A DNA stretch of 64,000 nucleotides from assembly GCA_002794035.1 (NCBI GenBank), contig PCXQ01000004.1, positions 187,064 to 251,063 on the forward strand, given 5' to 3'. Position numbers and translations under genes: made by a program. Below, piece by piece: positions 5,196-37,351 of this stretch (its first letter is position 1; each line of letters opens with the position of its first letter). The notes under the pieces are model-generated. The model was not told the origin of the DNA. It saw only the letters and a list, made by a program, of their open reading frames with translations, and searched no databases. Source of the stretch: Candidatus Yanofskybacteria bacterium CG10_big_fil_rev_8_21_14_0_10_36_16. Lineage in GTDB: Bacteria; Patescibacteriota; Minisyncoccia; 2-02-FULL-40-12; IGHO2-01-FULL-4-A.

Positions 5196-5918
5196 GTGAT
5201 TCTAGTTTTTATGCACGAAGATAAAGTGGCCGATTTAGAAAAAAATATCGGCATAACCTTCTCAAACAAGGACCATGCTTTACAGGCCCTTACGCACAGG
5301 TCATATCTCAATGAAAATACAAAATGGCATTTAGATCACAATGAGCGCCTAGAATTCTTAGGTGATGCGGTTTTAGAATTGGTTGTAACCGAATATTTAT
5401 ACACCAAATACCCCGACAAACCCGAGGGCGAAATGACGAATTGGCGCGCAGCATTAGTAAACTCAATAATGCTAGCTAAAATTTCGTCTAAATTCAGCCT
5501 GAATGACAATGTGCTTTTATCACGAGGCGAAGCTCGAGATACAGGAAGAGCAAGACAATATATACTGGCCAATGCGGTTGAGGCACTAATAGGAGCTCTT
5601 TACCTAGATCAAGGTTATAAGGTATGCGCGGAATTCATAAATAAATTTATTATTTCCGAACTTGACGATATACTAGAAAACAAACTCTACAAAGATTATA
5701 AGAGCTTATTCCAAGAAGAGGCTCAAGACAAAGTTGGTATTACCCCTACATATGAAGTGGTTGATGAATGGGGTCCGGACCATGCCAAAACATTTAAGGT
5801 AGGATTGTTCTTGGAAAAAGATAAGATATCTGAAGGTGAAGGCAAATCAAAACAAGAGGCCCAACAAGAAGCTGCGAAAAAAGGGCTAGAAGCAAAAGGA
5901 TGGGGAGAAAAAATTTGA
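5196..5918 (+). CDS. rnc: Ribonuclease III
   Basis: RNase III signature ERLEFLGDAVLELVVTEYLY and a C-terminal dsRBD. The start may be an internal Met. Confidence 0.9.
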   Translation: MILVFMHEDKVADLEKNIGITFSNKDHALQALTHRSYLNENTKWHLDHNERLEFLGDAVLELVVTEYLYTKYPDKPEGEMTNWRAALVNSIMLAKISSKFSLNDNVLLSRGEARDTGRARQYILANAVEALIGALYLDQGYKVCAEFINKFIISELDDILENKLYKDYKSLFQEEAQDKVGITPTYEVVDEWGPDHAKTFKVGLFLEKDKISEGEGKSKQEAQQEAAKKGLEAKGWGEKI

Positions 5919-5927
5919 TATTAACCT

Positions 5928-5960
5928 AAAACCCCTCCGCCTAAGGCGGAGGGGTTTTTA
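5928..5960. terminator. Bidirectional intrinsic terminator (AAAACCCCTCCGCC-TAA-GGCGGAGGGGTTTTT)
   Basis: Perfect GC-rich hairpin flanked by an A-run and a T-run, between convergent genes. Confidence 0.75.
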
Positions 5961-5978
5961 AATTTAAACAAAATTACA

Positions 5979-29350: not shown

Positions 29351-30874
29351 ATGCCAAAAAAATATACCCCGGGAAAACCCGGTGAATTTCCATTTACACG
29401 AGGAACCCGATCTCTAGGGTATCAAGATCCTAAGAAAAAGTTTTGGACAATGAGAATGTTCTCTGGTTTTGGATCTGCTGAAAACACTAATGAGCGTTTT
29501 AAAAAACTATTATCCGAAGGTGAAACTGGATTGTCAACCGCATTTGATATGCCCACCCTTTTAGGACTTGATTCTGATGATCCTAGGGCCAAATGGGATA
29601 TCGGAAAGGGAGGGGTCGCAGTTTGTACTCTCGAGGATATGGAAGTCCTTTTCAAAGACATACCATTAGACAAAGTTACAACCTCTATGACAATAAATGC
29701 TCCTGCTGCAGTTTTATTGGCAATGTATATTGCTGTTGCAGAAAAAAAAGGGATTTCAAAGAATCAAATTGGAGGAACAATCCAAAATGACATTTTAAAA
29801 GAATATATTGCTCAAAAAGAGTGGATTTTTCCCCCATTACCTTCAGTGCGTTTAATAGTTGATACGATTGAATATTGTTCTGAATTTGTACCACGCTGGA
29901 ACACTGTTTCAATCTCCGGCTACCACATTCGAGAGGCAGGAGCTACAGCAGTACAGGAATTAGCTTTTACTTTGGCAGATGGCATAGCCTATGTCGAAGC
30001 ATGTATAAAAAGAGGCTTGCGAATTGATGATTTTGCGTCCAGACTTTCTTTCTTTTTTGATTTTCACAATAATTTTTTTGAAGAAATAGCAAAATTAAGA
30101 GCCGCCCGATATTTATGGGCACACATTATTAAAGAAAGATTCGGCGCACAAAACACGAGATCGATGATGTGTAGAATGCACGTCCAAACTGCAGGCTGCA
30201 CACTAACTCACCAACAACCCTTGAACAACATCGTCAGAGTAGCAATACAAGCTCTGGGTGCGGTTTTGGGGAATACCCAATCACTACACACAAATTCTTA
30301 TGATGAAGAATTGTGCCTACCCTCCGAGGAAGCTGTCATAATTGCCTTGCGTACTCAGCAAATAATTGCCCACGAAACAGGCATTGCAAATGTTCCTGAT
30401 CCCCTTGGTGGCTCTCCCTACATAGAAGGTCTCACCAAAAAATTGATAGAAGACGCACGAGATTATATAAAAAAAATAGATGACATGGGAGGCATGATAA
30501 AAGCTATTGAAAAAGGTTTTCCTCAAAAAGAGATACGAGACTCGGCTTGGCTTGATAAAAAGTTTCAAGACGATAAAACCAAAATCGTAGTTGGTGCAAA
30601 TAAATTTAATGACACATCAGAAGAAGAAAGTTGTGGAAATTTTGAAATTGATCCTCAAGCTCAAACACGTCAACTAGAAAGACTTAAAGCTTTCAAGGCA
30701 AGAAAAAATTCTAAATTAGTTAAAGAATCTTTATTAGAAATAAAAATTGCGGCTATGGAAAATAAAAACCTGATGCCCTATTTAATTGAAGCTGTAAAAA
30801 ACAACGTTACTCTTGGTGAAATTTGCACCAGTTTAAAAAAGGTATTTGGAGAGTATCAGGAGGTGGCAAATTGA
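29351..30874 (+). CDS. B12-dependent acyl-CoA mutase large subunit (methylmalonyl-/isobutyryl-CoA mutase substrate-binding TIM barrel), lacking a B12 domain
   Basis: FPFTRGTRSLGYQ...FWTMRMFSGFGSAENTNERFKKLLSEGETGLSTAFDMPT matches the MCM/ICM N-terminal barrel. Confidence 0.85.
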   Translation: MPKKYTPGKPGEFPFTRGTRSLGYQDPKKKFWTMRMFSGFGSAENTNERFKKLLSEGETGLSTAFDMPTLLGLDSDDPRAKWDIGKGGVAVCTLEDMEVLFKDIPLDKVTTSMTINAPAAVLLAMYIAVAEKKGISKNQIGGTIQNDILKEYIAQKEWIFPPLPSVRLIVDTIEYCSEFVPRWNTVSISGYHIREAGATAVQELAFTLADGIAYVEACIKRGLRIDDFASRLSFFFDFHNNFFEEIAKLRAARYLWAHIIKERFGAQNTRSMMCRMHVQTAGCTLTHQQPLNNIVRVAIQALGAVLGNTQSLHTNSYDEELCLPSEEAVIIALRTQQIIAHETGIANVPDPLGGSPYIEGLTKKLIEDARDYIKKIDDMGGMIKAIEKGFPQKEIRDSAWLDKKFQDDKTKIVVGANKFNDTSEEESCGNFEIDPQAQTRQLERLKAFKARKNSKLVKESLLEIKIAAMENKNLMPYLIEAVKNNVTLGEICTSLKKVFGEYQEVAN

Positions 30875-31980
30875 CTACAAAAATATTGCTGGTAAAGGGT
30901 GGACTAGATGGTCATGATCGTGGAATTCAAATTGTGACTAAGGCTCTGAGAGATTCTGGTTTTGATGTAATTTATGGTGGCCTTTATTGTTCTCCCGAAG
31001 AAATAGCAGCAATAACCATTCAAGAAAATGTCGATGTGGTTGGAATTTCCACACACAGCGGAAATCATCTGGGTATTTTTTCAGAAACCATAAAAATTTT
31101 AAAAGAAAAAACAAATACCCACTGGCCCATTATTGGCGGAGGAATTATTCCAGCAAACGACATCCCCGCTCTTGAGAAAATGGGTGTAGATAAAATTTAT
31201 TTACCAAGTACTAACATTACAGAAATTGTTGAATTCATAAAGGGGCTGAAGTTAATGAAAAGAAAAAAAGAATCACAACAAAAAACAATTGAAAGAATTT
31301 TAAAAGGAGAAGTTTTTGCGGCAGCGTCTTTAATGTCATTAGTTGAACAAGGCGACAATAACGCAAAGAAAATAATTTCTAAATTACCAGATTTATCCCC
31401 CCAAACTATTGTAGTTGGCATAACTGGCTTCGGCGGCGTTGGAAAAAGTACTTTAATTAACAAACTTATCGAACATTTCAGAAAGGACAGAAAAACTGTT
31501 GGGGTTATAGCATGTGACCCAGTGAGTGTTTCCCGTGGTGCAGTTATGGGAGACAGAATAAGAATGAAAGATCACGCCCAAGATGAGGGTGTTTTTATAA
31601 GAAGTATTGTTCAACGCCAAAATTTCAAAGGAGTAACACCGACAACCCCATCAATTATAAAAATTTTGGGAGCAATGAAAAAAGATATAATAATTGTCGA
31701 AACTGCTGGAGCCGGACAGGAAAATTCAGGATTTAAAGACCTCGTAAAAGTTTTAGTATGGGTTTCTGTTCCCGGACTTGGTGATAAAATCCAAATGCTT
31801 AAGGGTGGAGGTATTGAAACTGCCAATATTATAGTTGTAAACCAATCGGATAAAGCAGCCTCGTATTTGACATTTCAAGATCTTAAAGAACATTTTGAAA
31901 ACACCAAAAAAATATGCAAAACCAATTCTCTGACAGGAGAAGGCATTTCCGAATTAGTCAAAGCAATAAAAGTGGTTTAA
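30871..31980 (+). CDS. Cobalamin-binding domain fused to MeaB/ArgK-type G-protein chaperone (acyl-CoA mutase small subunit-MeaB fusion)
   Basis: KILLVKGGLDGHDRG (DxHxxG B12 motif) then P-loop GITGFGGVGKST. Probable TTG start at 30871 with AGGAGGTG 5 nt upstream, overlapping the upstream TGA (TTGA). Confidence 0.8.
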   Translation: MTTKILLVKGGLDGHDRGIQIVTKALRDSGFDVIYGGLYCSPEEIAAITIQENVDVVGISTHSGNHLGIFSETIKILKEKTNTHWPIIGGGIIPANDIPALEKMGVDKIYLPSTNITEIVEFIKGLKLMKRKKESQQKTIERILKGEVFAAASLMSLVEQGDNNAKKIISKLPDLSPQTIVVGITGFGGVGKSTLINKLIEHFRKDRKTVGVIACDPVSVSRGAVMGDRIRMKDHAQDEGVFIRSIVQRQNFKGVTPTTPSIIKILGAMKKDIIIVETAGAGQENSGFKDLVKVLVWVSVPGLGDKIQMLKGGGIETANIIVVNQSDKAASYLTFQDLKEHFENTKKICKTNSLTGEGISELVKAIKVV

Positions 31981-32081
31981 AAATAAACCGCTTTTTTATT
32001 TAATTTAAACTGTCCAATTCCTAATAAAAACAACAAAATGGACACTCGTACATTTTTAGGTCTTTATTGTTGTACTACAGC

Positions 32082-32140
32082 GGCTCCGGGAAGCAACGTC
32101 TCAGCAGGACAAATAGGACTCCCCGCCTCTGGCAGGACAA
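32082..32140 (-). repeat. Partial direct copy of the tRNA-Asn 3' end (GGCTCCGGGA-GCA..AGCAGGAC), candidate distal att site of a tRNA-Asn island
   Basis: 10/10 match to the tRNA-Asn acceptor/3' region plus a second 8-nt match to the T-stem. Same orientation as tRNA-Asn at 34558..34632. Confidence 0.4.
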
Positions 32141-32234
32141 ACTTCTCATCCTGCCCTCAAAAACTAGTTAAAACAAAAATACAGGGTTAACTCTGTATTT
32201 TTATTTTACAAGTTCTGAACTGCTTGCGATGAGT

Positions 32235-32350
32235 CCGTCGAATGGTTGCCTGTGTCCTAACGTGCAACTAAGCAAGAACGAGGAAGTACTGAGCACAGCA
32301 GTGCGAATGTAGATTCGAGAGAATCATCGAACATATTATGTGTCTAAGTT
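32235..32350 (+). repeat. Imperfect direct repeat copy A (~110 nt)
   Basis: AACGTGCAACTAAGCAAGAACGAGGAAGTACTGAGCACAG...AGTGCGAATGTAGATTCGAGAGAATCATCGAACATATTATGTGTC is ~85% identical to copy B at 33655..33810. Confidence 0.7.
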
Positions 32351-32375
32351 AGAGAAACCAGGTTCCTATAATTTG

Positions 32376-32702
32376 TTATCCAAACACTAAAACCTTATCT
32401 GACTCATCAATCATTTTTACCAAATCGATCATAGTGGTTATAGGACAAACCTTACTTTCGGATTTAGAACGAATTTTAAGACAAGTCTCGCAGGCCACAA
32501 GAACACCTTTTAGGTCTTTGAACTCCTGGATTCTCTTGGAGATATCAAACTGTTCAGTATCAGAAATGTCTTCAACTTCAACTCCTTCATTCATAAGAGA
32601 GATTTTAACCGAATGACCCGCTTTTAATGCGGTAATGGCTAAACGAAATGTATTCCAGATATGTTCTGGATTTTTAGATTGTAAAATAATGCCGATTTTC
32701 AT
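32376..32702 (-). CDS. DsrE/DsrF-like family protein
   Basis: MKIGIILQSKNPEHIWNTFRLAITALKAGHSVKISLMNEGV fits the DsrE/TusD-like fold. 108 aa. Confidence 0.55.
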   Translation of the reverse strand: MKIGIILQSKNPEHIWNTFRLAITALKAGHSVKISLMNEGVEVEDISDTEQFDISKRIQEFKDLKGVLVACETCLKIRSKSESKVCPITTMIDLVKMIDESDKVLVFG

Positions 32703-32704
32703 AA

Positions 32705-32926
32705 TTATTTCCTAGCCCACATCCAAAACCTCTCATGCAGATAATAAACTAGGGTTAATATAATACCAGCAACTACGGAAATTTCTCCCGACTTCTTGAT
32801 TTCCCCGGTATACACATAAACAACCACGCCAGTAATAATCATGGCGAATATTCTCCAACTTACTGCTTTTATTATAGGTCGAACACGATTGTTCCGAACC
32901 ATCGCTCTGATAAAATTTATCGTCAT
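32705..32926 (-). CDS. Small membrane protein (DUF2061-like)
   Basis: 73 aa, 2 TM, basic N-terminus. Confidence 0.35.
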   Translation of the reverse strand: MTINFIRAMVRNNRVRPIIKAVSWRIFAMIITGVVVYVYTGEIKKSGEISVVAGIILTLVYYLHERFWMWARK

Positions 32927-32932
32927 AAGTAT

Positions 32933-33616
32933 CTAACTTAAATCTTTTTTCTTTTCCTCAAATTCTTTTTTATCAATCTCGCCACGGGCATAGCGTTCTT
33001 TTAGAACATCTAGGGCAGATTTGGAACCTCCGTTTCTGCCTTGGCTCATCAACCATTTTACAAGAGCAACTATGCCAGCAATAATCAGAGCCCACCATAA
33101 AAACATAAAAATAAAACCGAGACCCCCGAAACCACCAAAACCAAAATTCATCATATTGTTTGTTGAATTATTATTGCCGAAGGGAGACGACCACCCTCCC
33201 CACATCATATTCATCATGGGCATCCAACCACCGCTTATTGCCGGGAATGCCGCCGAAGTATCACAACCAGAAAGACGCTTGCCCATAACGATATGAATTT
33301 GTTCTTCACCGTCTTCACCGTGTGCCTGAATCATCATAGCGTTCATGGCGACGTGAGATTCACCAGCCATCTGTCCCATAAAATACTCGCCAAGAACTCC
33401 ATACTGCTCATCATTTAGATCGGCACAAACAACCTCTTTTGCCTGAAGTTTATTCCAAAGTTCTTTGCCTTCTTGTTCTTCGCGAGCAGTGTGCTCAACA
33501 ACCTCGTTCCAATCAACAGAAGTATTGGAAAACCCACCCATCATTTGGGCGTTGACTGCAGATGTTATTACTAGAAGGGCACCGAAAATAAATATTGCAA
33601 GTAGTGTGTTTTTCAT
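32933..33616 (-). CDS. Secreted Met/His/Gly-rich protein with C-terminal TM helix and SHOCT domain (possible metal-binding)
   Basis: Signal peptide MKNTLLAIFIFGALLVITSAVNA, the most likely start. The longer ORF to 33703 would run into repeat copy B. Met-rich MPMMNMMWGG / HVAMNAMMIQAH. C-terminus DVLKERYARGEIDKKEFEEKKKDL is a SHOCT motif. Confidence 0.5.
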   Translation of the reverse strand: MKNTLLAIFIFGALLVITSAVNAQMMGGFSNTSVDWNEVVEHTAREEQEGKELWNKLQAKEVVCADLNDEQYGVLGEYFMGQMAGESHVAMNAMMIQAHGEDGEEQIHIVMGKRLSGCDTSAAFPAISGGWMPMMNMMWGGWSSPFGNNNSTNNMMNFGFGGFGGLGFIFMFLWWALIIAGIVALVKWLMSQGRNGGSKSALDVLKERYARGEIDKKEFEEKKKDLS

Positions 33617-33654
33617 AAGATAAATATAGCACACCTTACTCTTTCTAGCCATAT

Positions 33655-33810
33655 TTTTCCGACCGAACGTGCGACTAAGCGAGAGCGAGGAAGTACTGAG
33701 CAAAGTGAGTGAATGAAAGTGAATGAATACTGAGGTTAGCAGGCCGAACGTGCAGTGCGAAGTAGATTAGACAGAATTATTGGACATATTATGTGCCCAA
33801 ATTGGAAAAG
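33655..33810 (+). repeat. Imperfect direct repeat copy B (~155 nt, carries a 47-nt internal insertion/duplication)
   Basis: See copy A. Followed by hairpin AAGTGCG-cagttat-CGCACTT. Confidence 0.7.
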
Positions 33811-33868
33811 CAAAAAACAAAAAAGTGCGCAGTTATCGCACTTGACTGTAGTAAATTATGTTTTCCTG

Positions 33869-34411
33869 TCAGATGTTTGCTTTTCTAAATAACAACCCAG
33901 ATACCGCAAAAATTGCGGCAAAAATAAAATTGACAATAAATACACCAACAACACCTGCATTCCCCCAAGAAACTTCGGGCGAAATAATCAAAGCAACCAC
34001 TGGAACTAAAAACTGGATGAGTGCCACAACAAACAATGTGTATGCCATTCCATGTGACTTAAAGCGTGAAAGCAAAGAGCCGATGAACCCAACAATAGGT
34101 ACTGCCCAATACATCGAGTTGACTGAGTTATCTTCGCTTCCGATAATACCGACAGCACCACTGACCCAACCGAGAAGAAAAACCCCGAAGAACCCCATAA
34201 TAAAAGCGAAGCAGTATAACTTATTGCGGGTCTTTAACCATTGCCATAATTCATAGGCGCCGCCGACAATCAAAAACATAACACCAAAAGCAACAGTTTC
34301 ATTCCATTGAACTTCGTCTGCGAATGGTTGAAACTGTATTGCTAAAAGCATTATCAATATAAGTGCCACAACAACAGCCCACACTCTTTGTCTTTTTGTA
34401 ATATTTTTCAT
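33869..34411 (-). CDS. Multi-TM hypothetical membrane protein
   Basis: About 6 TM helices. Start probably at the internal Met (MKNITKRQRVWAVVVALILIML). Confidence 0.4.
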   Translation of the reverse strand: MKNITKRQRVWAVVVALILIMLLAIQFQPFADEVQWNETVAFGVMFLIVGGAYELWQWLKTRNKLYCFAFIMGFFGVFLLGWVSGAVGIIGSEDNSVNSMYWAVPIVGFIGSLLSRFKSHGMAYTLFVVALIQFLVPVVALIISPEVSWGNAGVVGVFIVNFIFAAIFAVSGLLFRKANI

Positions 34412-34557
34412 AATTCTCCTATTTAAACAGTACTTTGATAATTTAACCACACTTAGGTTCATCAGTCCATCGAGCTCAGCTCGGTCCATGCTTGGGTTCT
34501 TCGACTAAACTCAGGATAAATAAAATAAAACACTAGGAAAATCCTAGTGTTTTATTG

Positions 34558-34632
34558 TGGCTCCGGGAGCAGGACTCGAACCTGCAACCATCTCCTTAAC
34601 AGGGAGCCGCTCTACCATTGAGCTATCCCGGA
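34558..34632 (-). tRNA. tRNA-Asn (anticodon GTT), CCA encoded
   Basis: Minus strand: TCCGGGA-TA-GCTC-AATGGT-AGAGC-G-GCTCC-CTGTTAA-GGAGA-TGGTT-GCAGG-TTCGAGT-CCTGC-TCCCGGA-G-CCA. Confidence 0.85.
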
Positions 34633-34868
34633 ATGTTGTTATCTAGCCATTTTCTACCTTGGCCAGACTTCAAAAAACGTTCTCTCGTTATCGCTTCTTT
34701 TTTAGTATTGAATTCTTCTGAGTGAATTAGTACGAATGGGCCATTTGACCTAGTCCATCTGTTACTACCAGCATTATGCTCCTTTAATCTATTAAAAACA
34801 TTTTTTGAAGTTTGACCAATATATCTCTTATTATTTTTGTTACTTCTCAATACGTAAACATAAAACAT
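34623..34868 (-). CDS. GIY-YIG nuclease family protein (YhbQ/UPF0213-type, Slx1-like)
   Basis: MFYVYVLRSNKNNKRYIGQTSKNVFNRLKEHNAGS matches the YhbQ GIY-YIG pattern. The last codons and stop (TAG) lie inside the tRNA-Asn 5' end. Confidence 0.75.
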   Translation of the reverse strand: MFYVYVLRSNKNNKRYIGQTSKNVFNRLKEHNAGSNRWTRSNGPFVLIHSEEFNTKKEAITRERFLKSGQGRKWLDNNIPG

Positions 34869-34869
34869 A

Positions 34870-35065
34870 AAATTACCATTGTCAGCCAGAGGCTGATCAG
34901 CCTACGGCTGAAGCTATCCCGGAATGAATTGTTAAACATTTATCCGGCCAATGGTAGAGCAGCGAACTGATCCACCATTGAGTCCCGACGTTTTAGTCGG
35001 GATCCTCGATTTTGTAATCCTGCTAAAGCAGGAAACAAATATCGGGACCATCCCGGAATGTTTCC
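34870..35065 (-). repeat. Scrambled tRNA-Asn 5'-end fragments (three copies of CATTCCGGGAT..., an inverted duplicate of the D-arm, and palindromic hairpins)
   Basis: Minus-strand reads CATTCCGGGATGGTCCCGAT, CAATGGTGGA..GCTCTACCATTG, and CATTCCGGGATAGCT-[TCAGCCGTAGGCTGATCAGCCTCTGGCTGA]-CAATGGTA directly upstream of the GIY-YIG ATG. Confidence 0.6.
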
Positions 35066-35167: not shown

Positions 35168-37351
35168 TTAAAACTCTAAAAGCTTACTTAAACCAGAAAC
35201 AATTTTACCAACCGTAGGGAGATAAAGCTCTTCAAGCTCTGGTGAAAATGGTACTGGCGTGTCTTCAGCTGCAATCAATACAACTGGTGCATCCAAATCC
35301 TCAAAAGACTCTTCGCTAATTCTACTCACTATCGTTTGGCCAAAACAACCAGTTTTAGATGCTTCGCATGTTACCAAAACTCTGCTAGTTTTTTTGATTG
35401 ACTCAGAAATGCATTCAAAATCAACAGGAATTAAAGATCTCAAATCTATAATCTCTATTGTCTTGCCTGTTTCGGCTTCCACTCGCTTAACCGCTTCAAT
35501 AGCTCTAAACATCTGAGAGCCATAACTAATAACAGTTGCATCTACCCCCTCTTTTAAAATTCTAGCCCTACCAAAAGGAACAGTATAATCGCCTTCAGGA
35601 ACTGGGGTGTTGAGCTCGGGAGGAATCATGCCGGATTCCGGATTTAAATTATAAATCCCCTTATATTCTACAAAAATTACAGGACTGTCATCTAATATAG
35701 CAGAATTTAGCAAACCCCTTGCATCAAATGATGTTATGGGAGCAACAATCTTAAAACCCGGCGTAGAGGCAAACCATGATTCTGGGTGAGCACTATGAAA
35801 AGAAGATGAGCCCTTGGTCCAGCCAGAAGGCATCCGGAAAACAATTGGCATTGGACCGAAACCTCTAGCAATCTGATTGGCTACAAAATTTACCATAATC
35901 ATAAAAGCAGATGATGAAAAATCAGCAAATTCAAATTCAACAATAGGTCTGAGATTTAAATAAGTAGATCCCACAGCCATTCCAACTATTCCTGATTCAG
36001 CTAAGGGCATATCAATTACACGCCTTTGATAAATTTTGTTAATTTTATAAAAATCTTCTGGCCATTCAATATTATCAAAAATACGAGAAAGTCCTTCTGT
36101 AACCTTAAATGCACCACCACTTAATCCAATGTCTTCTCCTAGAAGAATCACATTGGGGTCTTTTGTCATTCTTGTTATTAATGCTCCCCTGATTGCTTCA
36201 CGGTATGTAATTAAATCTCCATTGTTTGGAGGTAAAACAATTTCATTTTCGTGAACAATCTCAGGCATAAAAATAGACCTCCTGATATCTTTCACTTTTG
36301 GTCCAGAGCATTTTTCAGATCGCGCCAAATCTTCTTTAACAGTTTGTTCTGCCCTTTCTTCAATTTGATCAAGAGTCTTATCATCAACTTGGAATTCATC
36401 GGTAAGACGTTTTAACAAAGCATCAACAGGATCCTTTTTTCTCCACTTCTCTAGCATTTCTTCTGGCACATATTTGTGACTATCAGCAAGTGAATGTCCC
36501 GCCATTCTCATGGTTTTTGCAACAATAATAGAGATGATTTTTTCATTTCTTGCACGATCAAGAGCCCTAGAAACAGTGTTATAAACCATACCAACATTCG
36601 TACCATCAATTAAAAATCCTTCCACATTTCTGCCATAACCCAAAGCCCTGAGAGCTAAAGTTGGAGACCTAAATTCAAAAAAGTTAGGAGTACCAAATGC
36701 CCATTGATTGTTTTCGATTACAACAACCATAGGCAACTCTTTTACAGCTGCAATATTCAATGCTTCATGCACAATACCAATACTAGTTGCTCCATCTCCT
36801 AAAAAAGCCAGTACAGCATCCTCGGAATTGTGAAAATTTATTCCAAAAGCACAACCTGAAGCAATTGGCAACATTATGCCCAAGTGGCTAACAAAAGGAA
36901 TTATTCTTTTTTCAAAATCTCCAAAATGGAGGCTAGCATCCCAACCATGAGTAGGGCCATCTTTTTTTGCACAGATCTGGCACATTATTTCGTAAGGTGT
37001 TAGTCCGCGGACCAAATGAGTGCCTAGGTCCCGAATGGCTGGTGCAAACCAATCTTCTTTTTTGAGTGCATAACCAGCACCAACAGCAGTTGCTTCATTT
37101 CCTAAACTTGAAAGATGCTTGCCCAATGCCTTACCTTTTTTGATCAAAAGTTTAATTTCTCTCTCTGTCTTTCTGGTAAGATGCATATAGTAATACAATT
37201 CTTTATACAGTTCCCTTAAATCACATTGAGATTCAGTAACAACTTGAGATTCTATACCCTCAGCAGATATACGATAAACAACATCGTTTAAATCTTTAAA
37301 AGGATCAATCTTCTCTAATTTTCTATACATTTCTGCAAAATATCTGGGCAT
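35168..37351 (-). CDS. 2-oxoacid dehydrogenase E1 component, fused alpha-beta subunits (TPP-dependent)
   Basis: N-terminal half carries the E1-alpha TPP motif (LGDGATSIGIVHEALNIAAV...ENNQWAFGT). C-terminal half is transketolase-like E1-beta. 727 aa. Confidence 0.8.
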   Translation of the reverse strand: MPRYFAEMYRKLEKIDPFKDLNDVVYRISAEGIESQVVTESQCDLRELYKELYYYMHLTRKTEREIKLLIKKGKALGKHLSSLGNEATAVGAGYALKKEDWFAPAIRDLGTHLVRGLTPYEIMCQICAKKDGPTHGWDASLHFGDFEKRIIPFVSHLGIMLPIASGCAFGINFHNSEDAVLAFLGDGATSIGIVHEALNIAAVKELPMVVVIENNQWAFGTPNFFEFRSPTLALRALGYGRNVEGFLIDGTNVGMVYNTVSRALDRARNEKIISIIVAKTMRMAGHSLADSHKYVPEEMLEKWRKKDPVDALLKRLTDEFQVDDKTLDQIEERAEQTVKEDLARSEKCSGPKVKDIRRSIFMPEIVHENEIVLPPNNGDLITYREAIRGALITRMTKDPNVILLGEDIGLSGGAFKVTEGLSRIFDNIEWPEDFYKINKIYQRRVIDMPLAESGIVGMAVGSTYLNLRPIVEFEFADFSSSAFMIMVNFVANQIARGFGPMPIVFRMPSGWTKGSSSFHSAHPESWFASTPGFKIVAPITSFDARGLLNSAILDDSPVIFVEYKGIYNLNPESGMIPPELNTPVPEGDYTVPFGRARILKEGVDATVISYGSQMFRAIEAVKRVEAETGKTIEIIDLRSLIPVDFECISESIKKTSRVLVTCEASKTGCFGQTIVSRISEESFEDLDAPVVLIAAEDTPVPFSPELEELYLPTVGKIVSGLSKLLEF

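Follow-up and report, generated by a model that had tools for sequence, protein, structure and literature searches.

The window analyzed here, a 64,000-nucleotide stretch of DNA from a Candidatus Yanofskybacteria (Parcubacteria/CPR) genome with 37 per cent GC, raises the question of whether the segment at 32.08–34.56 kb was once inserted at the 3' end of the tRNA-Asn gene that adjoins it. An initial annotation had described an intact tRNA-Asn(GTT), four minus-strand genes, a direct but partial repeat of the tRNA 3' end, and no integrase. The tRNA and the four genes were confirmed, whereas the repeat proved weaker than described (Table 1). ARAGORN and Rfam agree on the tRNA gene, which forms an intact border on one side; the four ORFs are present, and three of them belong to Pfam families; and the geometry is that of an intact tRNA, 2.4 kb of genes, and a degenerate direct copy of the last ~20 nt of the tRNA. 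The genes scanned between 20 and 50 kb contain no Pfam domain of a recombinase, an integrase, or a remnant of either, and a tblastn search with a serine recombinase known from tRNA-Asn elsewhere gave no match in the window.

Table 1. Features of the tRNA-Asn locus, with positions in the window.
Feature	Positions	Strand	Basis or remark
Interrupted, degenerate direct copy of the 19 nt that precede the terminal A of tRNA-Asn (GAGTCCTGCTCCCGGAGCC)	32082-32121	-	distal border candidate
Hairpin with perfect arms and T-run	32169-32208	-	inverted repeat I6; fold
Direct repeat R, copy 1, downstream of DsrE	32256-32356	.	
DsrE-family protein, 108 aa	32376-32702	-	Pfam PF02635, E 2.7e-9
DUF2061 small membrane protein, 73 aa	32705-32926	-	Pfam PF09834, E 2.3e-14
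SHOCT protein, 227 aa, Met/His/Cys-rich envelope protein	32933-33616	-	SHOCT PF09851, E 6.6e-9
Direct repeat R, copy 2, upstream of the SHOCT gene; palindrome ACATAATATGT and 47-nt internal duplication	33663-33809	.	
Terminator-like hairpin 3' of gene D	33823-33843	-	terminator scan
Gene D, 180 aa, multi-TM, AGGAG ribosome-binding site	33869-34411	-	ORF
Terminator-like hairpin, 15 bp and T-run, directly 3' of tRNA-Asn	34524-34556	-	inverted repeat I10; terminator scan
tRNA-Asn(GTT), encoded CCA	34558-34632	-	ARAGORN; Rfam RF00005, 69.9 bits; proximal border
GIY-YIG endonuclease gene, 81 aa	34623-34868	-	Pfam PF01541, E 1.3e-17; PHROG homing endonuclease 3e-10
Two decayed copies of the 5' ~20 nt of tRNA-Asn, each insertion-split	34874-34926, 34971-35060	-	D3, D6, I13

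The interval between position 32376 and tRNA-Asn holds genes for a membrane protein (gene D), a SHOCT protein, a DUF2061 protein, and a DsrE-family protein, all on the minus strand. The profile searches suggested in the initial annotation placed the last three in their families: the SHOCT match is C-terminal (residues 201–226; 35.7 bits vs. a cutoff of 27), the DUF2061 match scores 54 bits (cutoff 23.1), and the DsrE match covers the full length of the protein (37.6 bits; cutoff 22.7). Gene D falls into no family in Pfam, NCBIfam, or PHROG; its relatives number 1361 cluster representatives at E ≤ 0.001, and the best are 51–53 per cent identical over the full length. Gene D has a terminator-like hairpin at its 3' side and would be transcribed separately from the other three genes. 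These would be transcribed as a leaderless message from a putative extended -10 promoter and end at the hairpin at 32169–32208, which is likely the terminator of the unit; the extended -10-like sequence, TGCTATATT, was read from the DNA and stops 6 nt before the SHOCT ATG.

The SHOCT protein begins with a signal or hydrophobic segment at its N-terminus; then come a helical outer domain, a linker rich in Met, a single TM helix, and the SHOCT domain at the C-terminus. An alignment of thirty-nine sequences has C64, C118, H42, H88, H99, H108, and more than ten Met residues as invariant positions. Its AF2 model has a helical N-domain (pLDDT 80–90); compared to PDB, the model has no match at E ≤ 0.001, no metal-protein homolog was retrieved by fold search, and PDB holds no sequence relatives of either the SHOCT protein or DsrE. 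Within DsrE, C71-x2-C74 and C86 are conserved in an alignment of four sequences. Repeat R has no further copies in the window, the fetched loci, or IMG/VR. We rejected it as a riboswitch or sRNA (the consensus folds are weak on both strands) and as a homolog of the conserved ~75-nt leader of DsrE-SHOCT in loci L014 and L010, where the alignment reflects generic terminator or promoter likeness only.

The candidate distal border is a degenerate, interrupted copy with no clean att repeat. Its longest run identical to the tRNA has 10 contiguous bases (32082–32091 = 34559–34568; GGCTCCGGGA) and is followed by a 12-nt insertion (32092–32103), a second block of 7 bases (32104–32110 = 34569–34575), and a third, overlapping 7-nt block (32115–32121 = 34571–34577). 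Combined, the blocks are colinear with 19 of the 20 terminal bases of tRNA-Asn, and the copy spans exactly the acceptor/T-stem tail up to the discriminator base and CC. A hairpin with a T-run (32030–32075) begins within 8 nt of the copy in the predicted fold and was not called by the terminator scan; it weakly suggests the context of a tRNA end. An SRP or other structured RNA at 32075–32165 was rejected, as Rfam returned nothing there either at gathering thresholds or at E ≤ 10.

Three further 10-mers of the tRNA occur by chance in the window, so exact-word statistics do not favor the copy, and BLAST at E ≤ 1 does not report the tRNA/copy pair. We also applied a chaining score, which is post-hoc in that it was designed once the data had been seen. 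Under this post-hoc score, the 19 colinear bases rank top in the whole window on both strands (the best score on the opposite strand is 11), and a score of 19 was reached in none of 200 Markov simulations of 64 kb and by 5 of 400 shuffled tRNA tails compared to the real window (P ~0.0125). The best match is in direct orientation and 2.4 kb downstream of the tRNA 3' end, a placement that makes up ~2 per cent of the search space. Given the top chain score and the predicted position and orientation, the similarity at 32082–32121 is probably true homology to the tRNA-Asn tail, degenerate as it is. The partial copy is weaker than claimed earlier: it is direct and above chance by a post-hoc test (P ~0.01), but it amounts to 10 contiguous nt, or 19 nt with two insertions, and lacks BLAST significance.

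The genes themselves carry no foreign signal in the codon-usage check that had been proposed: in GC, GC3, and codon log-likelihood, all four deviate from the other window genes by no more than ±1.2 SD, and none is unlike the host in composition or codon usage. Compared to their relatives, the SHOCT protein and DsrE are under strong purifying selection, and dS is saturated (at least 1.4). Recent horizontal transfer of the cargo is therefore rejected, and any transfer must have been ancient; ordinary composition together with saturated dS leaves no sign of a recent one. The expectation that such cargo would be unusual in a reduced genome was not borne out either. Relatives of the SHOCT protein number 2120 at E ≤ 0.001, and identity is 74–87 per cent for the best 119 non-identical ones (three of these 119 are named as Parcubacteria or bacterium MAGs). 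Of seven contexts examined in relatives, six show the pairing of SHOCT with DsrE. DsrE-SHOCT is widespread in Parcubacteria, and the module is ~80 per cent identical between genomes whose primases are 36 per cent identical.

Proximity to tRNA genes recurs among the relatives. DsrE-SHOCT lies directly downstream of tRNA-Gln (L014/15), of tRNA-Ser (L013, L049), and of a tRNA-Gln 3' remnant (L010), and a 2.9-kb copy of the module, 99.97 per cent identical, is found in two contexts, with the identity beginning one base after the tRNA-Gln CCA. Five related loci (L006, L013, L014, L016, and L049) were scanned for a partial tRNA copy in direct orientation, and none has one, although the module directly follows the tRNA in three of them.

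Under the island model, an empty-site allele would join tRNA-Asn directly to ...CTGTAGTACAACAATAAAG. For the flanking genes, identity to the nearest relatives does not exceed 62 per cent (MeaB) and 55 per cent (E1); none of these relatives is syntenic, and they are too distant for an empty-site comparison. Sought through MeaB, the empty site yielded one unrelated Dehalobacterium match in the genome-contig scan and nothing in the first metagenome scan. No presence/absence polymorphism was seen; every same-species contig that reaches the region carries the segment. In two same-species contigs, L024 and L026, the window's tRNA (100 per cent identical to the window up to CCA) is followed by a recombinase 3' end, which has 85 per cent protein identity to the recombinase tail of L036; this junction may be an assembly cross-over. 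Contig L001, from the same assembly, was rejected as an alternative upstream context: it is a proven chimera at the window's tRNA-Asn and carries the housekeeping genes def-fmt-hpf at 52 per cent GC. Logan contig L053 passes without a break from the anticodon stem of the window's tRNA into the island, and a k = 31 graph cannot separate paths that share the 32-nt tail.

Elsewhere, tRNA-Asn is a real integration target, since twenty-two metagenome contigs have the end of one large-serine-recombinase element directly after the ...GAGCCA that closes tRNA-Asn genes or partial, tRNA-like 3' ends. An intact tRNA-Asn is directly upstream in thirteen of these contigs and an intron-containing tRNA-Asn in about six more, and the tRNA sequences at the element end vary between contigs. 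The recombinase of the element is a large serine recombinase of 547 aa with the Pfam domains Resolvase and Recombinase, and its ORF extends into the tRNA in antisense; decaying versions, truncated to 102 aa in L048 and to 269 aa in L040, also occur. In L041, the tRNA is followed by 133 nt, a perfect 20-nt repeat of the tRNA end, and the element. The right end of the element (attR) was not captured in any fetched locus, and the literature search gave nothing relevant on a serine recombinase with tRNA-Asn. The conserved element end (GATAGGATGAACATCAGCGAAAGCTGG...) and the recombinase directly after the tRNA CCA are absent from the window, which instead has a different terminator and gene D after tRNA-Asn. 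At the other end of the tRNA, the last four codons and the stop of the GIY-YIG gene overlap the first 10 nt of tRNA-Asn; this gene is outside the proposed island but is part of the same tRNA-Asn hotspot, and the two decayed copies of the tRNA 5' sequence are on this side too. At least three kinds of mobile DNA share tRNA-Asn as a target in these bacteria.

We hypothesize that the segment is an old, decayed, ameliorated genomic islet with lineage-typical cargo, not demonstrably active, and we give this reading an even chance of being right. DNA would have inserted at the tRNA-Asn 3' end, restoring the tRNA and displacing the original tail 2.4 kb downstream; the displaced tail would later have degenerated, as 12 nt were inserted, a short stretch was duplicated, and the terminal A became G. 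Loss of the recombinase and a shift of the genes to host composition would have left the segment fixed in the chromosome and immobile. The module could equally have been inherited vertically, with rearrangements at tRNAs. A weighty competing account, about which we are nonetheless doubtful, is that the four genes are native and that 32082–32121 is a chance similarity in a GC-rich intergenic hairpin region or an unrelated scar, e.g. of repair after endonuclease cutting. The shortness of the contiguous identity, the other chance 10-mers, the silence of BLAST, and the shuffled tails that equal the chain score somewhere in the window all agree with native genes, as do their ordinary composition and codon usage and a cargo that is widespread, strongly constrained, and saturated in dS; moreover, the relatives of gene D are at the same distance (~51–53 per cent) as those of the flanking E1 (55 per cent) and MeaB (62 per cent). 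Against this account, no other match in the 128 kb of strand searched is as good as the copy, which sits in the ~2 per cent of positions and in the orientation that the island model predicts and corresponds precisely to the acceptor/T-stem tail as far as the discriminator base and CC, at a tRNA that is a proven integration target in other genomes.

The remaining accounts tie the segment to an integrating element more directly. An unlikely one is that the segment is a stripped remnant of the tRNA-Asn large-serine-recombinase element, with the recombinase end deleted and the distal att decayed. That element family uses exactly this site in twenty-two contigs, its recombinase is found in truncated and decaying forms, and L024 and L026 show the window's tRNA followed by a recombinase 3' end, but the possible cross-over in these two contigs weakens the last point, the window retains no trace of the recombinase or of the conserved ~270 nt at its end, and the twenty-two element loci contain none of the four cargo genes; the same improbable account expects the element right end to be joined to CAATAAAACACTAGG. 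CIMEs are cis-mobilizable, integrase-less stretches of DNA flanked by att sites and moved by the integrase of a related ICE, as with ICESt1/ICESt3 of Streptococcus thermophilus. We think it very improbable that the segment is a minimal element of this sort, with usable att sites and excised and moved in trans by the recombinase of a co-resident element. It does lie between a tRNA and a sequence that resembles a tRNA tail, recombinases specific for tRNA-Asn exist in the community, and a near-identical DsrE-SHOCT module occurs in two contexts of another genome pair with the break at a tRNA end. Yet the distal copy, split by 12 nt and a duplication, is unlikely to be a working site, the window has no recombinase, no circular junction or empty site was seen, saturated dS and full amelioration argue against recent movement, and no partial tRNA copies bound the module in the five other loci scanned. 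Only slightly less remote is a broader version in which tRNA-Asn is a multi-user dock (3' serine-recombinase elements, 5' GIY-YIG cassettes, and anticodon-loop group I introns) and the segment is an integrase-less copper-module passenger, recognizable through its tail-like distal site and movable by an incoming element (accretion, or CIME-like). The initial annotation had left the choice between a decayed island and a minimal element mobilized in trans; the decayed islet is favored, whereas nothing supports mobilization in trans, with the distal repeat split by 12 nt.

The SHOCT-DUF2061-DsrE unit would handle a soft metal, copper or another, at the cell envelope: on the outer side of the membrane, the SHOCT protein would display its invariant Met, His, and Cys residues, and the DsrE-like protein would supply a cytoplasmic CxxC...C thiol site. 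These invariant residues are only suggestive of metal binding. In relatives L010–L012, the gene order is DsrE, SHOCT, a CsoR-type repressor (PF02583), an HMA P-type ATPase, and an HMA/DsbD_2 protein; the linkage to CsoR/CopY and CopA is confined to these relatives, and among the genes scanned between 20 and 50 kb of the window, Pfam finds no CsoR, CopA, or HMA gene beside the module. Neither the window neighborhood nor the related loci contain sulfur-relay partners (DsrF/H, TusB/C/E) or sulfur-oxidation genes, and the NCBIfam SaoD model scores 16 bits on DsrE (cutoff 169). The genomic context of the module points to metal handling over sulfur relay. The literature search gave nothing relevant linking SHOCT with copper, and the genomic link to CsoR and CopA in relatives makes a copper function of SHOCT-DsrE directly testable.

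The segment is a fairly ordinary feature of modest novelty. If it is an islet, it would be a further example of very small CPR genomes keeping flexible islets at tRNA genes, and it would indicate that such islets can carry ordinary, strongly conserved lineage genes and not exotic cargo alone. Two by-products, the SHOCT-DsrE module and the tRNA-Asn target, are more useful than the island, and neither alters current concepts; the pair of a Met/His/Cys-rich SHOCT protein and a DsrE-like protein is among the most conserved uncharacterized modules seen here in Parcubacteria.

Compared to known systems, the segment resembles tRNA-integrated islands and islets and their decayed 'anchored' remnants in having accessory cargo between an intact tRNA and a putative partial direct 3' copy; it differs from them in having a degenerate repeat, a cargo common in the lineage, no integrase, no compositional signal, and no empty-site allele among the contigs compared. 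Like CIMEs, it lacks an integrase, lies between att-like sequences, and occupies a site that integrase-bearing elements use, but its distal site looks non-functional, the window has no cognate element, and no mobility was observed. Large-serine-recombinase elements (phiC31, Bxb1, and SCCmec-Ccr type; here L027–L048) target the tRNA-Asn 3' end, as proposed for the segment, and L041 and L044 have a partial tRNA-like tail directly before the element end, whereas the window lacks the recombinase and the conserved element end and carries unrelated cargo. The window DsrE is like the DsrE/TusD sulfur-relay family (PF02635) in its profile score, small size, and conserved cysteines, but has no DsrF/H or TusBCDE partners. 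Finally, although the window module lacks the neighbors found in CsoR-CopA-CopZ copper efflux operons and matches no known copper protein in structure or sequence, DsrE-SHOCT stands immediately upstream of CsoR-family, HMA ATPase, and HMA/DsbD_2 genes in L010–L012, and the Met/His-rich motifs of the window SHOCT protein resemble those of periplasmic Cu(I) binders.

The segment at 32.08–34.56 kb, between tRNA-Asn(GTT) and a degenerate copy of the tRNA tail, carries four genes of about average composition for the window: for GC, GC3 and codon-usage likelihood, none deviates by more than 1.2 SD from 55 window genes. The tRNA, ORF and domain calls bear out the gene descriptions of the initial annotation, which had proposed an integrase-less tRNA-Asn island. 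No recombinase domain was detected among the genes scanned from 20 to 50 kb, and PHROG scans of the four cargo genes returned nothing phage-like.

Features of the segment, its flanks and related loci
Feature	Position	Strand	Remarks
tRNA-Asn(GTT)	34558–34632	-	four minus-strand genes downstream of tRNA 3' end
Gene D	33869–34411	-	180 aa, multi-TM, AGGAG ribosome-binding site
Terminator of gene D	33823–33843	-	gene D's own
SHOCT protein gene	32933–33616	-	227 aa, C-terminal SHOCT domain
DUF2061 gene	32705–32926	-
DsrE family gene	32376–32702	-
Strong hairpin	32169–32208		ends SHOCT-DUF2061-DsrE trio
Repeat R, direct pair	32256–32356; 33663–33809 (copy 2)		two blocks, 88 and 80 per cent identity
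24-codon ORF	32072–32146	-	MRSLSCQRRGVLFVLLRRCFPEPL; GAGGG motif 4 nt upstream
GIY-YIG gene	34623–34868		81 aa
Decayed copies of tRNA first ~20 nt	34874–34926; 34971–35060		each insertion-split
Mutase, B12-binding/MeaB fusion, fused E1 alpha-beta	29351–31980; 35168–37351		
~75-nt element	L014:3184–3305 and 5858–5973; L016:2460–2581; L010:1811–1931; also L011, L012, L015

Repeat R brackets the SHOCT-DUF2061-DsrE trio, and its copy 2 has a 47-nt internal duplication. We found neither a convincing RNA fold for this repeat nor a further copy in the window or anywhere else searched. An extended -10-like sequence, TGCTATATT (33616–33640), stops 6 nt short of the SHOCT start codon, and another, TGTTATAAT, lies 6 nt ahead of a start codon in a relative (L014:3285–3305). 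Neither start codon is preceded by a Shine-Dalgarno sequence, and this arrangement suggests leaderless transcripts for the SHOCT and DsrE operons.

The copy of the tRNA tail has the same orientation as tRNA-Asn itself and lies 2.4 kb downstream of it. On the plus strand, 32082–32091 equals tRNA-Asn GGCTCCGGGA and is followed by 12 additional bases, by GCAGGAC (32104–32110) and by an AGGACTC block (32115–32121) that overlaps the preceding block in tRNA content. Read on the tRNA strand, GAGTCCTGCTCCCGGAGCC is complete and in order through the discriminator base and CC, and the terminal A of the tRNA is G in the copy. The partial direct repeat of the initial annotation is thus present and correctly oriented, but it is interrupted and weaker than written, and neither BLAST nor exact-word statistics single it out as significant. 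By a chaining score devised post hoc, after the pattern was seen, the copy scores 19, the maximum for both strands of the window; the tail of the other tRNA in the window scores 12–14. This value was reached in none of 200 Markov simulations and by 5 of 400 shuffled tails compared with the real window. Though degenerate, 32082–32121 is probably homologous to the tRNA tail. The main rival explanation, to which we give a lower but appreciable probability, takes the four genes as native and the resemblance to the tail as a product of chance or an unrelated scar. The 24-codon ORF, which overlaps both a GC-rich hairpin and the degenerate copy, is probably not a gene.

If the segment had been inserted, the empty site would be tRNA-Asn fused to CTGTAGTACAACAATAAAG. 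An element sitting upstream of the islet would have an attR in which any sequence is joined to part of the tRNA tail, with CAATAAAAC coming next. In the window, tRNA-Asn runs into CAATAAAACACTAGG, and the segment is present in all of the same-species contigs L001–L005 and L051–L053 (99.9–100 per cent identity). The nearest homologs of the flanking genes are distant (only 62 per cent identity for the MeaB fusion and 55 per cent for E1), and synteny of their loci with the window is limited to MCM-MeaB, so no empty site could be identified.

Two other same-species contigs, L024 and L026, led to evidence that tRNA-Asn receives insertions. Both match the window at 100 per cent identity across E1, the GIY-YIG gene and tRNA-Asn up to its last base, and then diverge into sequence absent from the window. 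The first 36 nt of this new sequence retrieved 22 loci in a metagenome contig search, the element junction being tRNA-Asn followed by GATAGGATGAACATCAGC. The element begins immediately past the CCA of an intact tRNA-Asn at 13 loci, where the tRNA sequences vary by contig, and at about six further loci a group I intron interrupts tRNA-Asn. In one locus (L041) the tRNA is separated by 133 nt from an exact 20-nt copy of its own end, and the element comes after that copy; three others (L034, L044 and L047) have just partial tRNA tails ahead of it. The element sequence corresponds to the 3' end of the gene for a 547-aa large serine recombinase (Resolvase and Recombinase domains), whose reading frame runs through the junction and terminates in antisense to the tRNA; the genes downstream vary among loci. 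Since this element occurs at tRNA-Asn ends, the tRNA-Asn tail is a genuine, widely used integration site, which raises the prior for the geometry initially proposed. No trace of the element family was found within the window, and its right end was not recovered in the fetched loci. The first ~270 nt of the element are 80–93 per cent identical among loci (L027–L048; L024:4312–4522; L026), and by eye its cargo resembles restriction-modification or defence genes.

The L024/L026 junction itself may be an assembly cross-over, because L001, from the same assembly, is chimeric inside the same tRNA. L001:1–1771 (ERZ27293400 k141_656813) carries def-fmt and hpf from an organism of ~52 per cent GC, fused within tRNA-Asn to the Yanofskybacteria island of 37 per cent GC, a warning for all junction analysis at this tRNA. 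In the Logan contig L053, the tRNA's own anticodon stem continues into the island, though a k=31 graph cannot resolve the two paths through the common 32-nt tail.

On the 5' side, the GIY-YIG gene ends within the first 10 nt of tRNA-Asn and is preceded by the two decayed copies of the tRNA start, an arrangement that looks like repeated cassette insertion restoring the tRNA. Homologs of this gene lie directly upstream of tRNA-Asn in L031, L043 and L027. Group I introns (Rfam RF00028, 63–80 bits) occur in tRNA-Asn at L032:2554–2871, L046:2614–2832 and L027:2463–2740, and by eye also in L030, L038 and L040. The ribozyme core is preceded by an HNH-motif ORF (CxNCHxEIH). L010:10331–10569 holds a further group I intron.

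The idea that the cargo is unexpected in a reduced genome did not survive comparison with relatives. The SHOCT protein has 2120 of them at E<=0.001, and the best 119 non-identical ones are 74–87 per cent identical. Of seven contexts examined, six (L006, L010 and L014 types, L016, L049 and L050) have a DsrE gene next to the SHOCT gene or separated from it by one gene, L013 being the one without it. Neither gene D nor DUF2061 was found in L006–L016 by tblastn, and DUF2061 is likewise missing among the genes listed for L049 and L050. Between the window SHOCT and DsrE genes and those of four relatives, dS is saturated (1.4 to infinite) and dN is ~0.12–0.25; SHOCT is 80 per cent identical in L013 versus 36 per cent for dnaG, the sole housekeeping gene in common with one of those genomes. 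By these values the DsrE-SHOCT module is ancient, under very strong purifying selection and not a recent import. Against L006, L010, L013 and L014, SHOCT dN/dS is ~0.06–0.08 wherever dS is estimable; for an envelope protein without a characterised function, such conservation is exceptional.

In L014 and L015 the module lies directly downstream of tRNA-Gln(ttg) and in the same orientation. L013 and L049 have it behind tRNA-Ser(gga), L010 behind the 3' remnant of a tRNA-Gln, and L006–L009 at 1.8 kb from tRNA-Gln; no tRNA adjoins it in L016 or L050. A partial tRNA copy in direct orientation was found in none of five loci scanned (L006, L013, L014, L016 and L049), so the adjacency may be due to something else, for example breakpoints of rearrangements or the transcriptional context. 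A 2.9-kb DsrE-SHOCT segment is 99.97 per cent identical between L014:3184–6063 and L016:2460–5339, which have unrelated upstream contexts. The identity starts exactly with the first base past the tRNA-Gln CCA, and the segment reflects either recent movement or an assembly artefact. Upstream of DsrE-SHOCT is a conserved ~75-nt element that has two short hairpins, of which one shows a compensatory change, followed by a terminator hairpin and the extended -10 (TGTTATAAT) 6 nt before ATG; a second copy lies 2.7 kb downstream, ahead of another gene. It matched no Rfam family and may be a small RNA or leader.

A copper or soft-metal role in the envelope is our best inference for the cargo. In L010–L012, genes for a CsoR-family repressor, an HMA P-type ATPase and an HMA/DsbD_2 protein directly follow the DsrE-SHOCT pair. 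The extracytoplasmic part of the SHOCT protein has 2 Cys, 4 His and >10 Met invariant in 39 homologs, and C71-x2-C74 and C86 are conserved in the DsrE-like protein. The AF2 model of the SHOCT protein has a confident helical outer domain but found no PDB fold match.

The window has a GC content of 37 per cent, and its SHOCT and E1 proteins have identical counterparts under the name of a Candidatus Yanofskybacteria MAG (CG10_big_fil_rev_8...; Parcubacteria/CPR). Accessory-type genes (TspO, methylmalonyl-CoA mutase with the B12-binding/MeaB fusion, fused E1, MsrA and ectoine synthase) occupy 20–45 kb together with many ORFs that lack a family assignment; the housekeeping genes rpoD and dnaG come next (44.8–48 kb). 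The closest homologs of the mutase, MeaB fusion and E1 alpha-beta are only 55–76 per cent identical, and such metabolic gene content looks uncommon among Parcubacteria.

Most economically, the segment is read as an old and decayed islet that has become fixed and ameliorated at a tRNA-Asn hotspot and carries a lineage-typical, probably metal-related envelope module; our confidence in this reading is roughly even. That the islet is active or mobilised in trans is unlikely. Features of this kind are well known, and the side observations are for the most part what makes the region interesting.
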